From Leptospiraceae bacterium (GTDB lineage Bacteria; Spirochaetota; Leptospiria; Leptospirales; Leptonemataceae): DNA of 64,000 bases. The stretch covers positions 672,001 through 736,000 of the forward strand of contig JAVJNR010000003.1 in the NCBI GenBank assembly GCA_040217195.1, written 5' to 3'. The translations under genes and the position numbers were made by a program. The notes under the pieces are model-generated. The model worked only from the letters and a program-made list of their open reading frames with translations, was not told the DNA's origin and did not search any database. This document shows, in pieces, positions 28,542 through 62,172 of the stretch; position 1 is the first letter of the stretch; each line of letters opens with the position of its first letter.

Positions 28542-29432
28542 TTAGCCCCGGGGATGAAATTTCTTATGCACTTCTTTCAGGGTGCGACTGGCCATGTGAG
28601 TATAGATCTGTGTGGTCGAAATATCCAGATGTCCCAGTAGTTCTTGAACGCTTCGTAGATCTGCATTGTTTTCAATCAAATGTGTTGCGAAGCTGTGTCG
28701 AAAGGTATGCGGAGTAACTGGCTTTTTGATTCCAGTCCGAGAGATGTATTTCTTTAGAAGCCGCCAGACAGACTTACGGTTCAGCAAATCGCCTTTCTTG
28801 CTAATAAAAAGGTACTGGCTGTAGCGGGATTTGAGAATTTTCTCCCTGGCGTTGTCCATATAATTCTGAATCACTTCCAGAGATTTCTGACCAAACGGCA
28901 CCAGTCGCTCTCGCCCGCCTTTTCCGCGAACCGTCAAAAAGAGGTTCTCCAGATCAAGATCTTCCAGCCGCAGATTGCAGGCCTCGGAAATTCTCAGTCC
29001 ACTGGAGTACAGCAATTCGAAAATCGCCTTATCCCGCATTTCGTAAGGGTCCTTTTCGTTAAAGCAATCAAAGAGTTCTTTGATCTCTTCTACAGTTAGA
29101 TAATCCGGCAGAGTCTTTTTAACTTCCGGTGTATCAACATTCTCAGTTGGGTTAGCTTCCAGCCGGTTTTCATCTTTAAGGTACCGGTAAAACTGCCGCA
29201 GAGCTGCTAAAGCCCTTGCACGTGATCTGCTGGAGATCTGCTTCTCTTTTTGATCTTGAAGAAAGCCCACCACATCTTCAGTGTTTACGGTGAGTAGATC
29301 TTTGCGACGGGCTGCCACAAAGTCCTCAAACTTCTTCAAGTCGTAGGAGTAAGCATGAATGGAGTTCTCACTCAATCCTCGCTCCACCAACAGAAAATCT
29401 TGGAATTCTTTCAGTATATTAGGCCTGGTCAA
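28542..29432 (-). CDS. xerD: Tyrosine recombinase XerD
   Basis: ERGLSENS..AYSYDL, LLYSSGLRISE, GKGGRERLVP, PHTFRHSFATHL, VQELLGH..ISTTQIYTH, HKKFHPRG. Confidence 0.88.
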   Translation of the reverse strand: MTRPNILKEFQDFLLVERGLSENSIHAYSYDLKKFEDFVAARRKDLLTVNTEDVVGFLQDQKEKQISSRSRARALAALRQFYRYLKDENRLEANPTENVDTPEVKKTLPDYLTVEEIKELFDCFNEKDPYEMRDKAIFELLYSSGLRISEACNLRLEDLDLENLFLTVRGKGGRERLVPFGQKSLEVIQNYMDNAREKILKSRYSQYLFISKKGDLLNRKSVWRLLKKYISRTGIKKPVTPHTFRHSFATHLIENNADLRSVQELLGHLDISTTQIYTHMASRTLKEVHKKFHPRG

Positions 29433-56999: not shown

Positions 57000-58286
57000 T
57001 CAGGGCTGATCGGCGTTGTTTCTGAATCTGGCTGTAATTGGCTGCATAGCGCTCGGTGCCAGTGAGTTTCGGGCCAGTAGATCCACATACCTGGCTGAAA
57101 GCACTGTTACTCTGTAGCGATAACCACCCAGGGCTTCCGAATGATAGGAAACCGGATTGGCCAGCTGAATGACTACAGACCTGTCTTCAGGATAAACACA
57201 GATCTCAGAAAAAGTACCGTTCCATAGTCCACTATGGAAGAAAGTCTTCACCAGTCCATTGTGAGCTTCCACACGGAACCCGTGGGAGTAATATTGCATG
57301 TGCTTGGTCACGGGCATGAAAGCCGGAGGCTGCAGCATTTCCTGGACGGAATCTGGTCTTAGAATTTCCGCCCCTTCCAGGGTTCCACCGCCAAGCAGCA
57401 TTCGGCCAAAACGACCCAGGTCATGAATACTGGAAGAGATACCAGAGGAGCCTTTGATTCCTGGACTGGCAGTGCTATCTCGCATGCCCAGTGGCTCAAA
57501 AATAGCCTGTTCCAGGTATTCCGGATAAGTCATTCGACTGGCATTTTCGATTATAGCGGCCAGGTGGGCATAATTTCCGTTGGAATACTGATGCCGAATT
57601 CCAGGAGCATAGGATGGTAATGAAGAACCGTAAGAAATCCCGGACGTATGAAGAAGAAGGTCTCGAACTGTTATCTGACCGAATTCAGGCCGACTGACAT
57701 GGACCCCGTATCGTGATATGGGGGCATCCAGATCTACCAATCCGTCTTCCACCAGAGTCATAACAGCTACCGCGGTAAAAGACTTGGTAAGGGATGCAAT
57801 TGGCTGACTTCTGTGTGAATCCAGGCCCTGATAGATTTTAACTGCAGGCTGCTCTTCAAGATAGATCTCTACAGCTGCACTGGGTACAATTTGATCGGAA
57901 ACTGCGGATTTAACGTAACCCAGGAGCTCCTGTTCGGCCCTGAGAGCCGCCCGAGATCTTTGAATTCTGGCTTCCCGATGTCCCTGAGTCAGCCTCACCC
58001 TGGGTGGCTCATAGCTAATAGCCCGGTCTGTCCTGGCAGGAGGAGGTACATCCAGACCCACATCAGGAAATAGGTTATCTTCTGGAAACTGCAGTGAATC
58101 GGACGCCTCTTTATATGAGAAAACGGATGCCATGGGCATGGGAACGATCAAAAGCAAGGCAAGTGCTACCCGATGCGCAATTTTCTTTTTCTGCTCCGGG
58201 CGGAGCAAAGGCCTGGAAGGGGCGCCGCTCTCATAGGGAGAAAGGCGGGCCACTCGATTTCCCTGTGCGTCCATAATCAAAGGCAT
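57000..58286 (-). CDS. Serine hydrolase, beta-lactamase/class C-like family
   Basis: SLTK (SxxK), LLLHTSG, YSN, IFEPLGM, HSG; N-terminal TM segment. Confidence 0.85.
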   Translation of the reverse strand: MPLIMDAQGNRVARLSPYESGAPSRPLLRPEQKKKIAHRVALALLLIVPMPMASVFSYKEASDSLQFPEDNLFPDVGLDVPPPARTDRAISYEPPRVRLTQGHREARIQRSRAALRAEQELLGYVKSAVSDQIVPSAAVEIYLEEQPAVKIYQGLDSHRSQPIASLTKSFTAVAVMTLVEDGLVDLDAPISRYGVHVSRPEFGQITVRDLLLHTSGISYGSSLPSYAPGIRHQYSNGNYAHLAAIIENASRMTYPEYLEQAIFEPLGMRDSTASPGIKGSSGISSSIHDLGRFGRMLLGGGTLEGAEILRPDSVQEMLQPPAFMPVTKHMQYYSHGFRVEAHNGLVKTFFHSGLWNGTFSEICVYPEDRSVVIQLANPVSYHSEALGGYRYRVTVLSARYVDLLARNSLAPSAMQPITARFRNNADQP

Positions 58287-58585
58287 ATCCCTCTATAAAT
58301 CGGCCAAATGCTGATAAAATTCCAAAAAAAGCTAATGGATTGGCCCAAATGATTCGTCTAAGCTTGACTTTCAATTCTTTTTTGCACTGCACTGAGACAT
58401 TAGCTTCCGGGCCGAGCTCGGTCCATCCGGGAGCGTTCTTTCCCGGCCCTCCGCTCCTCAAAATCTTCCGTAAGCGATTGAATTTAACTCCAATCAGCCC
58501 TGCCTCCGCTCACTGGCTGGATTTCCTGGTTTATGCGGCCGGGACCGGAACCGATGGGATGGGATCTGTGGCGGATCCAGCCGAG

Positions 58586-59058
58586 TTATGTCGTATTACG
58601 GTGGTTCGCGCGGATTATGTCTCATTAGCTCTCCGGGGCCTGGATTATGTCTCATAAAGGATTGGCGGCGCCGTATTATGTCACATCGCCGTTCAGCGGC
58701 CGGATTATGTCGTATTTGAAGCCGGGCCGAAGGCCGGAACTCAGATTGGCCAGGAATCGCAAAATCGACCGACCCAGGACTGCTGAATCGCCCGTTTTAC
58801 AGGCAGATATCTCCCGCTTCTTAGCTCGCTTTGAGCCTCCCCCTCCGGTGAACACAGGGCCCAATTTTGTCGGGCGGCTGAGAGGACCGTTGAGTAGATT
58901 ATGTCGCATCGGGGGGATCGGATCGGATTATGTCACGTTGCCTTCAGAAGGAGAGAGATATTATGTAACATCTTGTCAGGGTCGCAAAATTATGTCGCAT
59001 CGCATGTGCAATGCTGTATTATGTCACATTACTGCGGTACTGAAGGATCATATCCTAT
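58586..59058 (+). repeat. Interspaced direct-repeat array: 2 x 5 copies of an 11-bp TTATGTC(G/A/T)CAT-type motif, modal period 29 bp, with unique spacers
   Basis: Copies start at 58586, 58615, 58645, 58676, 58705, then 58899, 58928, 58961, 58990, 59019; degenerate copy at 59048. Confidence 0.9.
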
Positions 59059-59162
59059 TGCCTTTTCGGCGGAGGTATAACATTCATACAATCCAGGTCG
59101 GACTTTCGCAGTGCCCTTTGCCAGACGACCAACCCGGGAATACTAAACTGGATACCTGCCAG

Positions 59163-59717
59163 CTATCCGGCAGATTTTCTCTCGCGAATCCAGTTTTCCA
59201 GTTCGCGATTCACTTTTTCAGCCATAGAACCAAAGGATTCCAGTTCCTCCGGGCGGAAATTGCCCAGTAAATAGGATGCTATCTCCCCTCTCTCCGGTCT
59301 ACCGACACCGATTCGCACACGGAAAAAATTGCCATTACCCAATCGAGCAATAATATCCCGCAGACCATTGTGCCCTTTATGCCCTCCATCCTTTTTTAGC
59401 CGTACATCTCCAAACGCCAGTTCGGCTTCATCGTGCAGAACAATGATATTTTCCTGTTTGATGCCGCTGGATGCCATAGCCTTTTGCAGAGGACCGCCGG
59501 ATCGGTTCATATAGGTCATAGGCTTGAAAAGGATCAAATTCATGGAGAAAAGCTCAGCTTCAGCCATATCTCCATCATGCTTGGTTCGCCAGCTCACCGG
59601 AAGTGGCAGGTCCTCTGCAAACCGGTCCAGGGCCAGAAATCCAGCATTGTGACGAGTCTTGCTGTACTGATTGCCCGGGTTTCCCAGACCTACAATCATC
59701 AATCGCGAACCAGACAT
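59163..59717 (-). CDS. pth: Peptidyl-tRNA hydrolase
   Basis: IVGLGNPG..TRHNAGF, KPMTYMNRSG, GHNGL, RVRIGVGRP. Confidence 0.95.
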   Translation of the reverse strand: MSGSRLMIVGLGNPGNQYSKTRHNAGFLALDRFAEDLPLPVSWRTKHDGDMAEAELFSMNLILFKPMTYMNRSGGPLQKAMASSGIKQENIIVLHDEAELAFGDVRLKKDGGHKGHNGLRDIIARLGNGNFFRVRIGVGRPERGEIASYLLGNFRPEELESFGSMAEKVNRELENWIRERKSAG

Positions 59718-59774
59718 GGAGCCAGAGGCCAGGTTGCACTTGACCCGAAAAGGAAAAAACAGCGAGTCTACAAT

Positions 59775-61229
59775 ATGAACCGCCCTGCTCACCTGGTGCT
59801 GGCCCGAAAGTATCGTCCATTGAAGTTTGCCGATGTGGTTGAGCAAACAACTGCGGTCCGTGCACTGCAAAATGCAGCCCTGGAAGATCGAATCGGTTCG
59901 GCTTATCTGTTTTTTGGTCCCAGAGGTGTAGGAAAAACCACAATAGCAAGGATCCTGGCACGTCGAATAAACTGCACCGACCCAAAAGAGGGGGAGCCCT
60001 GTAATCAGTGCGAATCCTGCCGATCAATTATCGACAGCAGGTCTCTAGATGTAATCGAAATAGATGCAGCATCAAACCGAAGGATCGAAGATGTAAGAGA
60101 GCTTCGCGAAAATGTGAAGTTCCAGCCGATGAATAGCAAGCGAAAGGTGTACATTATCGATGAGGTTCACATGCTTACCACGGAGTCTTTCAACGCATTG
60201 CTAAAGACCCTGGAAGAGCCGCCAGAGCATGCTGCCTTTGTCCTGGCCACCACCGAGCTGAATAAAGTTCCAGAAACCATACTTAGCCGATGCCAGGTAT
60301 TTACCTTTCGCAAGGTACCATTGCATCGGGTTCAGGAATACATGGCCGACATTTGTCGTAAGGAAAACATTGAAGCAGAAAACGATGCTCTATTCTGGAT
60401 TGCTCGCAAAGGCGATGGCTCGGTCCGAGATAGCCTGAGCTTTCTGGAACAGGCAATTAGCTTCTGCGGAAATAAAATAACATCAGAAAAAGTGCGCGAA
60501 TTGGCCGGAGTCTATCCTCTGGAATTGTTCCTTCAGCTCACAACGCTGCTTATGAATCCGGCCACCCCTTCGCAGGATCTGGCTATGCCTGTCATGGAAA
60601 TATTTGACCAGGGCGGCGATCTGAATCGTTTTATCTGGGACTACCTGGACCATCTTAGAATCATACGCTACATTCGCTCGGGCGTGGAAGATTCAGATTT
60701 TCTGGGAATTCCGGGAAGTCAAATTCAGAATATAAAGTCCAGAGCCATGGAGTTTGATCCTGCACGAATATCCTTGATTTTTGACGAAATTCATGGATTG
60801 CTCACCACCGCCTTCTTTCTTAAACTTCGCAACTCCTATGAATCTCGTATTCTGATTGAGATGGAGTTGTTGAAAATCCATGATCGTCTTAAGAAGCCTT
60901 CGGTGAGCGCACTTATCAGCAAGATCCAAAAGCTCAGTGTAAGTCTGGCAGGACAGGATTCCCGCCGGAGCGAAGATTTAATGGCTGACCTTCCGGAAGA
61001 TTCCGGTCTCACTTCGCAGGCCCAGCCGCAAAACCAGAACCCCCGACCTTCGCAGCCGCTGCCCGGCCAATCGGCGCCCGGCAAAGATCAAACACCAGGT
61101 CCATCCTCAGATAAAAGCGATTCTACAATCAAAGGTAATGATTCGATTCCGATTGAAGATGAGCTGCAAAAGCAGTTTCTTGGGACCATGGTAGATCCGG
61201 AAAGTGTGCCAAACGAACCGGACGAATAA
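59775..61229 (+). CDS. dnaX: DNA polymerase III subunit gamma/tau
   Basis: LARKYRP, GPRGVGKTT, Zn motif, IIDEVHML, FNALLKTLEEPP, SRC. Confidence 0.95.
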   Translation: MNRPAHLVLARKYRPLKFADVVEQTTAVRALQNAALEDRIGSAYLFFGPRGVGKTTIARILARRINCTDPKEGEPCNQCESCRSIIDSRSLDVIEIDAASNRRIEDVRELRENVKFQPMNSKRKVYIIDEVHMLTTESFNALLKTLEEPPEHAAFVLATTELNKVPETILSRCQVFTFRKVPLHRVQEYMADICRKENIEAENDALFWIARKGDGSVRDSLSFLEQAISFCGNKITSEKVRELAGVYPLELFLQLTTLLMNPATPSQDLAMPVMEIFDQGGDLNRFIWDYLDHLRIIRYIRSGVEDSDFLGIPGSQIQNIKSRAMEFDPARISLIFDEIHGLLTTAFFLKLRNSYESRILIEMELLKIHDRLKKPSVSALISKIQKLSVSLAGQDSRRSEDLMADLPEDSGLTSQAQPQNQNPRPSQPLPGQSAPGKDQTPGPSSDKSDSTIKGNDSIPIEDELQKQFLGTMVDPESVPNEPDE

Positions 61230-61576: not shown

Positions 61577-62172
61577 TGCAATTCCCTGCGCTGGAACAGC
61601 TAGTAGATGTGCTTGGATCTTTACCGGGTGTGGGCAAAAAATCTGCAAGGCGAATTGCTTTTCATATCCTGAAATCCGATCCGGAAGTTAGCAGACGACT
61701 CAGTGATTCCGTAGCTCATCTGCGAAAGGAAGTGCGTTTCTGTGCTCAGTGCGGTGGCCTTTCTCAATCAGAATTGTGTCACATTTGTTCCGATACACAT
61801 AGAAATCAAAGACTGCTGTGCGTTGTGGAGGATCCATCGGACATCTTTTCCATCGAAGACACAGGAGAATTCAGCGGACTCTACCATGTATTGATGGGAG
61901 CTCTATCTCCTCTGGACGGCATAGGCCCGGATGATCTTCGCATTCAAGAATTAAGCCAGAGGATTGAAACCCATCCTTTTGATGAGATCTTTATTGCCAC
62001 AAATCCTACTCTGGAAGGGGATGCAACAGCTCATTATATCTCTGAACTATTCGCTCACCGTGGATTTCGGTTTACACGAATTTCGCATGGCATCGCCACC
62101 GGGGCAAGCATCGAATATGCAGATAAAGGAACCCTGGCCAGATCCATACGCGAAAGAAAATCCCTGGAATGA
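61576..62172 (+). CDS. recR: Recombination mediator RecR
   Basis: LPGVGKKSARR, C4 zinc finger, YHVLMGALSPLDG, ATNPTLEGDAT. Confidence 0.95.
   Translation: MQFPALEQLVDVLGSLPGVGKKSARRIAFHILKSDPEVSRRLSDSVAHLRKEVRFCAQCGGLSQSELCHICSDTHRNQRLLCVVEDPSDIFSIEDTGEFSGLYHVLMGALSPLDGIGPDDLRIQELSQRIETHPFDEIFIATNPTLEGDATAHYISELFAHRGFRFTRISHGIATGASIEYADKGTLARSIRERKSLE

Follow-up and report, generated by a model that had tools for sequence, protein, structure and literature searches.

A natural array of predicted XerD half-sites beside pth belongs to a motif family found in front of genes in several spirochaete families

The window analysed here is a stretch of 64,000 nucleotides from a Leptospiraceae bacterium (G000:C10:672001-736000, G000 being the source genome), and positions below are those of the window unless a contig is given. 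In this window, a gap of 877 bp between a serine hydrolase gene and pth contains ten 11-mers, all on the + strand, which start at 58586, 58615, 58645, 58676, 58705, 58899, 58928, 58961, 58990 and 59019 (Table 1). Their start-to-start periods are 29, 30, 31 and 29 bp in a first block of five and 29, 33, 29 and 29 bp in a second; nine of the ten copies are preceded by A and four by GGA. On re-reading and resampling, the copies, periods and contexts proved to be exactly as an earlier note on this DNA had described them, and the gap has ten copies with no more than one mismatch, whereas 2000 first-order Markov resamples gave 0.04 on average and never more than 2. All ten keep 9 or 10 of the 10 fixed positions of the motif. 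The eight short spacers are no more alike than shuffled sequences (p = 0.70), in agreement with the earlier description of unlike spacers between kept motifs. A motif-free gap similar to the one between the two blocks is found in the relatives G002 and G003 and is missing in G004. Regarding the decayed eleventh copy that had been proposed at 59048, it does lie in register and is preceded by GGA, but it has three mismatches at the ten fixed positions; a real eleventh unit is therefore plausible rather than proven. Another copy of the motif with one mismatch, at 61773-61784 within a recR-like gene, is probably a chance occurrence.

Table 1. Features around the pth array, and clusters of the motif elsewhere in the source genome (same strand, at most one mismatch unless stated)
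Feature	Position	Strand	Remarks
xerD, predicted binding protein	28542..29432	-	TIGR02225 above cut-off; 29 kb from array; RKSVW helix
Serine hydrolase, beta-lactamase/AmpH-like family	57000..58286	-	all profile matches below cut-off; start 300 bp from first copy
Block 1, five predicted lone XerD half-sites	58585..58715	+	copies 58615 and 58645 identical to the genome's dif XerD arm
207-codon open frame over the array	58647..59270	+	NCBIfam: no match; taken as spurious
Motif-free stretch between blocks	58716..58897	.	194 bp start to start
Block 2, five predicted lone XerD half-sites	58898..59029	+	periods 29/33/29/29
Probable decayed eleventh copy	59048..59058	+	in register; 7/10 fixed positions; GGA before; read from sequence
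pth, peptidyl-tRNA hydrolase	59163..59699	-	array adjoins its 3' end
Motif cluster	C1:567.6 kb		6 copies
Motif cluster before groES	C10:399.8 kb		3 copies
Motif cluster, pth array	C10		9 copies by the stricter 12-mer
Motif cluster, gap between rpsD and a serB-like gene	C3:167.6 kb		4 copies
Motif cluster, gap between gcvH and gcvP	C4:333.2 kb		7 copies
Pair of sites	C9		2 copies

The repeat corresponds to the XerD arm of dif, XerD being an enzyme whose usual task is to separate fused chromosomes. The source genome has three full dif sites, made of a XerC arm ending TTCCGATAA, six bases and a XerD arm, the last reading TTATGTCTCAT at C5:423401 and C9:32134 and TTATGTCTCAA at C8:51869. The array copies differ from the dif XerD arm of their own genome at no more than one fixed position, and two are identical to it. 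The suggestion that the 11-mers are XerD half-sites, initially drawn from a likeness to the E. coli arm, is thus supported by the genome itself, since two of its three full dif sites carry an arm found unchanged in the array and its dif arm is not unrelated to the repeat. A further array variant, TTATGTCGTAT, serves as dif arm in the related genome G007. The middle base of the motif is free in the lone sites of the source genome (A in 12, C in 1, G in 18 and T in 13), as it is in the dif arms across the order, and a single substitution at any fixed position of the 12-mer ATTATGTCNCAT leaves just 0-6 copies genome-wide. At the outer end, dif arms vary more than lone sites, which would be expected if XerD must bind the latter without the help of XerC. 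The core is quasi-palindromic (ATG-N3-CAT), with T next in 30 of the 44 sites of the genome, and many copies have GG in front. None of the ten array copies follows a XerC arm (0-4 of 10 matches at that position), so these copies correspond to lone XerD half-sites, and the lone XerC arm is not enriched in the genome (7 occurrences vs 3.0 expected, three of the seven being dif sites); the XerC-like gene is on C4. Judged by its sequence, the array is made of closely packed lone XerD half-sites, and binding of XerD to each copy, most likely as one monomer per copy, appears very probable. Of the earlier idea of an iteron- or centromere-like array, what holds is the notion of a protein platform, likely for XerD; the array is not adjoined by rep or par genes, its neighbours being the serine hydrolase, pth and dnaX.

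The array is also not an orphan, as it had been called. The 12-mer occurs 44 times in the source genome against 1.04 expected under a fifth-order Markov model, and the genome scan for motif clusters that the earlier note had proposed revealed four same-strand arrays besides the one at pth and one pair, the remaining sites being single. The pth array is the largest of the five, and arrays contain about half of all sites. Two of the five lie near xer genes (xerD, 29 kb away, for the pth array; the xerC-like gene, 7 kb away, for the gcv array, C4:333.2-342.0 kb), a proximity noticed post hoc. Elsewhere in the genome, lone half-sites flank parA-parB on C8 at the skew minimum (C8:201483 and 203124), and lone sites are found between parA and a rep-like HTH gene at C9:76039-76078, C9 being an 82-kb contig of 53% GC with a phage tail-type gene and its own full dif. 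An integron-integrase-like gene (G000:C6:3.0-4.6 kb) has a XerD-arm site with one mismatch upstream.

Gene calls were made with our own simple caller. The 44 exact sites of the source genome correspond to 28 loci, of which 13 are in divergent gaps, 13 in tandem gaps, none in convergent gaps and 2 within the opening 25 bases of a predicted gene; none of the 26 occupied gaps is convergent, though 18% of the gap DNA is (p = 0.006). The 20 sites of G024 are divided between divergent gaps (10), tandem gaps (9) and a predicted start (1), with 0 of 19 gaps convergent. In G033 and G035, 21 sites in 20 loci were found (10 tandem, 3 divergent, 2 convergent, 3 in genes and 3 unclassified), convergent gaps making up 2 of the 15 classified. 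G105, which belongs to another order, has 27 sites (14 tandem, 7 divergent, 1 convergent, 1 in a gene and 4 unclassified); the only convergent gap among its 22 classified ones is that of dif itself, and the tandem-gap sites are oriented 7 of 14 each way.

The genes whose starts neighbour these sites recur between families. In the source genome they include fliF, fliG, fliO, flhF, ftsQ-ftsA (ftsQ being identified by its place before ftsA), lexA, a dnaA paralogue, nrdJ, parA of C8, rpsL, rpsB and SpiroCoCo; in G024, fliG, fliO, flhF, a dnaA paralogue, nrdJ, ruvC, recC and SpiroCoCo; in G033, fliE, fliG, fliI, fliY, flhF and SpiroCoCo, and in G035 pcrA/uvrD; in G105, fliF, fliL, fliO, mraZ, rsmH, ftsZ, dnaE and der. 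Thus, fliF is shared by G000 and G105, fliO by G000, G024 and G105, fliG and flhF by G000, G024 and G033, the dnaA paralogue and nrdJ by G000 and G024, and SpiroCoCo by G000, G024, G033 and G040. Many site neighbours are metabolic, unnamed or otherwise not cell-cycle genes. Flagellar starts account for 4 of the 41 site-adjacent starts of the source genome (p = 0.0001-0.008, assuming 20-60 flagellar starts facing a gap). A second, divergent dnaA-like gene of this genome (G000:C5:323647-324966) has a lone site 177 bp upstream, and a site is also present at the paralogue in G005, G024 and G014. In G105, a near-complete dif-like site whose XerC arm has one base changed (G105:C20:12424-12448) lies 71 bp upstream of fliF.

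Published transcription start sites of Leptospira interrogans (PMC5243855, Table 4), in the part of this source available to us, place the motif close to several starts. By our own counts in the 80-nt strings of that table, the exact motif is at -21..-10 of flgC, at -49..-38 of a FtsQ-type gene, at -30..-19 of a weak soj start and at -55..-44 of a wHTH gene adjoining parB, and a copy with one mismatch is at -12..-1 of fliF. The motif search of that study reports, in the same available part, two other motifs and not the XerD-arm motif. Such varying distances from the start site (-55 to -1), together with both orientations, fit an operator and not a sigma element, and a sigma-factor core promoter element was rejected on these grounds. 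A sigma-70 -10 element was also discarded, as the one weak promoter-like match that uses a repeat is at chance level.

The history of the pth array was followed by comparing 30 of 42 matching pth loci (6 of the same genus and 24 of other genera). An array of 5-11 copies (at most one mismatch) with the same polarity is present at the 3' end of pth in all six same-genus loci and in none of the 24 loci of other genera; a sink at this place is thus not essential in the order. Array periods in the relatives range from 22 to 46 bp. Spacers are not recognisably common between genomes (of 10 cross-genome comparisons, one gave p = 0.04, as chance allows), and the alignment of orthologous loci showed the spacer turnover that the earlier note had asked about, with the motif kept in 6 of 6 loci. 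Near-identical spacer pairs are nevertheless kept within G004 and G005 (0 of 500 shuffles reach them). Given these pairs and the variable periods, tandem duplication followed by spacer drift under selection on the motif is suggested, and from the sequences compared the pth array is a genus-specific array born by tandem duplication, in which the motif is kept while the spacers drift. The linkage of hydrolase and array is kept in G002-G005. In G001, the array stays at the 3' end of pth between convergent genes while the hydrolase is about 4 kb away and has no array, indicating that no downstream promoter is needed. The rpsD, groES and gcv arrays occupy the same places in G005, and for one G005 array the orthologous gap of the source genome holds no counterpart. 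In 42 hand-collected periods (median 31) the helical phase was weak (R = 0.29), and no phasing is claimed.

Beyond this genus, the motif is widespread. The 41 genomes of the order have 3-69 copies each, and 0-3 of the reversed pattern used as control; the motif exceeds the control in 40 of them, the exception being G007 (3 vs 3). G040 has 69 copies, and most of those examined lie within a dispersed IS-like repeat; this repeat has an ORF of about 154 aa that matches nothing in NCBIfam, and it looks like a mobile element with a XerD half-site. A dif search in 25 genomes of other orders gave a clear site in 20: all ten with the TTATGTCNCAT arm carry 10-31 copies of the motif, whereas all ten with other dif arms carry 0-3. 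The AT-rich G050 and G074 show a weak excess over the control (13 vs 6 and 10 vs 9). A tree of 27 XerDs places 17 in a single clade (support 100/99), which is the motif-rich group, and all 17 have RKSVW in the helix that we take, from work on E. coli XerD, to be the reader of the XerD arm; the other ten have RKG in the five TTATGTCTACT genomes and RVG, RIS or RVS in the five TTATGTTAA(C/G)T genomes. Since the covariation of arm and motif is largely one clade contrast, it should not be counted as twenty independent tests. A reciprocal case is provided by G076, whose own, different arm occurs 17 times against 1 for the control, three of these being full sites, and which has 2 copies of the G000-type motif. 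The pooled other-arm pattern is above its control in G140 (42 vs 24), not above it by a clear margin in G052, G142 and G055, and without excess in the five TTATGTCTACT genomes; lone sites are therefore not a general property of XerD.

Several related sites and genes were met in this survey. Three full dif-like sites lie about 280 kb apart on one contig of G076 (G076:C1:137863, 420718 and 696208). In G033 (C2, L174:1907-1934) and G035 (C2, L176, about 1856-1883), two XerD-type arms face each other across six bases in a 28-bp site, some 1.9 kb into the second replicon and apparently in its origin region; G000 may have a degenerate counterpart at C8, about 201.36-201.39 kb. Species-representative genomes hold at least 118 tandem pairs of the motif; of the 80 that were sorted, 35 are spirochaete-labelled, 34 come from one Caldithrix-labelled assembly (label unchecked) and 11 are others. 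Just 3 tandem pairs were found in a viral collection, on three viral contigs. Turneriella- and Caldithrix-labelled assemblies have tandem arrays of up to 26 units with a period of 31-48 bp, many ending at contig breaks, in which a further element, of roughly palindromic sequence, accompanies the XerD arm at a distance of about 12 bp. The source genome also encodes a degenerate tyrosine-recombinase paralogue of 225 aa (G000:C4:235170-235844, - strand), in which several catalytic residues are absent by eye; with the query used, it was found in 4 of 30 genomes, all of the array-bearing genus, and in none of the 26 of other genera.

Neither the array nor the other sites are bound to the terminus. 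On the 4.86-Mb contig of G005, which has dnaA at 2.547 Mb and dif at 0.308 Mb, the orthologous array lies at 3.466 Mb, a position 0.35 along the arm and 1.7 Mb from dif. In five near-complete genomes, 65 loci were examined after collapsing clusters and removing dif; G040 was left out because its copies are mostly in the IS-like repeat, and G033 and G035 for lack of a located dif on their main chromosome. These loci are evenly spread along the arms (KS p = 0.59), with 6 of 65 in the last tenth, and 31 of 65 are on the leading strand with no switch of orientation at dif, so that terminus enrichment and polarity are rejected for the sites in this order, and with them a KOPS-like polar motif. Of the five arrays of G005, four share an arm, within 0.27-0.50 of its length. 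In G076, all 14 loci of its own arm type are in the dif-proximal half (KS p = 0.0009), two of them being full sites and one of the three full sites having been chosen as dif. The comparison with GC skew and dif that had been called for gave a divided answer: the dif sites on C5 and C8 do lie near skew switches (25 kb from the GC-skew switch of the contig for C5:423401, 4 kb from the skew maximum for C8:51869), but motif clusters are not terminus-bound. The terminus-type model of SMC unloading is consequently not directly transferable to these sites.

Taking these data together, we propose, with a probability of roughly 0.4, that the array is a XerD platform that does not recombine and probably works as a sink for promoter-bound XerD, and that the single sites let XerD act on promoters. 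Each array copy would load XerD, and the platform would not recombine as dif does, the normal reaction being precluded because no XerC arm is present. At single sites, XerD might act on the promoters of flagellar basal-body, division and replication or partition genes. The arrays would buffer free XerD, and the sink would double as the fork passes, by analogy with datA, the E. coli site cluster that titrates the cell-cycle protein DnaA. A sink is favoured because the arrays are promoter-independent and contain about half of all sites. The wider proposal, in which XerD would be a global cell-cycle transcription regulator in a large spirochaete group with arrays titrating it in this genus, is more doubtful. 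The literature searched gave no paper in which XerD is shown to be a transcription factor.

The rival that comes closest to this proposal is that XerD on the array stalls or unloads SMC-ScpAB and so sets up a domain boundary in mid-arm, which would make the array the natural equivalent of the XDS array engineered in B. subtilis. An artificial XDS array is reported to block Smc-ScpAB and form a boundary (PMC11840125, after Karaboja 2021, in the part available), smc and scpB are present in the source genome, a barrier needs no promoter, and the dif-proximal own-arm loci of G076 indicate that an XDS-like layout exists in the phylum. Uniform, non-polar sites in this order do not suit a barrier, however, and with four of five G005 arrays on one arm unloading would be early and lopsided. 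Moreover, no match to the PF06470 hinge was obtained for SMC (928 aa) in five of five genomes, and the singles in front of genes are left unexplained; we regard a barrier as less likely than a sink. SMC is short in five genomes (928-1043 aa; G000:C6:64.5-67.2 kb), and scpB was not found in the readable bases of G035. It is less likely still that a different transcription factor binds the motif, its likeness to a dif arm reflecting shared use or convergence. The quasi-palindromic core, the promoter location, a gene set resembling a cell-cycle regulon and the degenerate tyrosine-recombinase paralogue found only in the array-bearing genus would all suit such a factor. Against it, the motif agrees with the dif arm at 10 fixed positions and also in which position is free, it is asymmetric, it switches with the arm type and the XerD helix, and the paralogue was not found in the 26 genomes of other genera, many of which are motif-rich.

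Other explanations concern the pth array itself. A multi-copy XerD operator for the neighbouring serine hydrolase gene would account for the short distance to the hydrolase start, for the linkage kept in G002-G005 and for an array of a motif whose single sites are promoter-associated, but the G001 arrangement, with the array at pth and the distant hydrolase without one, makes it improbable. Equally improbable is a by-product without function, the extra copies having arisen from a single useful site through slippage or unequal exchange promoted by XerD. The recent duplications visible in the spacer pairs of G004 and G005, the variable copy number and period, the G005 array without an orthologous counterpart and the long near-perfect tandem motif arrays of other assemblies are what such a by-product would leave; yet the ten copies of the source genome stay at 9-10 of 10 fixed positions while their spacers are as unlike as shuffles, which argues against neutral decay, as this would erode both alike. 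That the copies are stacked scars of Xer-mediated integration or pdif-like modules, as the earlier note had considered, seems very remote despite a period of 29 bp close to the 28-bp length of dif: the XerC-arm position matches at just 0-4 of 10, no cassette genes lie between copies, and the period itself is no fixed feature, as it ranges over 22-46 bp in orthologous arrays. A transcribed repeat-spacer RNA (CRISPR-, TIGR- or CsrB-like), to which the repeat-spacer look and the GG before many copies might point, is just as remote. Folding was no better than that of shuffles (z = +3.0 and -0.14), Rfam gave no match on 57500-60000, nor did any of 12 loci surrounding other sites have one at gathering scores, and the window has no tRNA genes. 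The best matches of the spacers to phage and plasmid sequences had E values of 2-5, none significant (short spacers weaken this search), and one metatranscriptome with 5% of the words, in which the organism is barely present, gave no cover over the array and is uninformative. Spacers here arise by duplication, and the motif is a DNA recombination arm found mostly as scattered singles in both orientations. A CRISPR-like unit was rejected for its periods, duplicated spacers and lack of a foreign match, and an integron attC for the absence of enrichment of the GTTATGC core (297 vs 293) and of cassettes in the array.

The XerD platform proposed here can be set against several known systems. CRISPR and other repeat-spacer arrays share with it a conserved repeat and unlike spacers; they differ in that the repeat here is of 11-12 bp, the period variable and the spacers locally duplicated, with no foreign match and no RNA structure. 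The CtrA regulon of Caulobacter, in which the sites of one protein stand before flagellar basal-body, division and replication genes, is like datA a functional analogy only, the proteins and motifs being unrelated. With chromosomal dif (XerC/XerD/FtsK) the array shares its repeat, which is the XerD arm of the dif sites of the genome, but it has no XerC arm, many copies and a location far from the terminus. The matS sites of E. coli, bound by the dedicated protein MatP, are also multi-copy DNA sites and are terminus-restricted, with an inhibition of the SMC family graded with site number (PMC10945525, PMC11894783, available parts); the spirochaete sites are arm-wide and match a recombinase arm. 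The XDS of B. subtilis are XerD sites acting in the terminus region (PMC11840125, PMC11894783, PMC10945525, PMC8242196, PMC13342612, available parts). As in that system, dif-like XerD sites are found outside dif, with a candidate job other than dimer resolution that is proposed here by sequence only, and the engineered XDS array, as described in these parts, shares its layout idea with the natural pth array. In contrast, the spirochaete sites are arm-wide, stand before genes and form natural head-to-tail arrays, the one at pth being 1.7 Mb from dif. Since the test of terminus location failed, the array is filed neither as XDS nor as dif.

Lone XerD sites or arrays in spirochaetes are not described in the literature searched, which scarcely reaches subscription journals. 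In the available parts of the five sources named above, lone XerD sites with a non-recombination job are reported from the B. subtilis terminus, and XDS arrays as engineered constructs only. The pth array is a natural one, and the arm-wide family of sites to which it belongs stands before similar kinds of genes in several families of spirochaetes. How flagellar gene expression is controlled in Leptospira was described in 2017 as not investigated, with few binding sites proven (PMC5243855, available part); the motif offers a site and a protein as candidates, together with target genes (fliF, fliO, fliG, flhF, flgC, ftsQ and soj). If XerD on the array were instead a barrier to SMC, this would be a natural mid-arm SMC roadblock made from a recombinase. 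If XerD does act as a regulator at these sites, chromosome resolution would be tied to motility and division.
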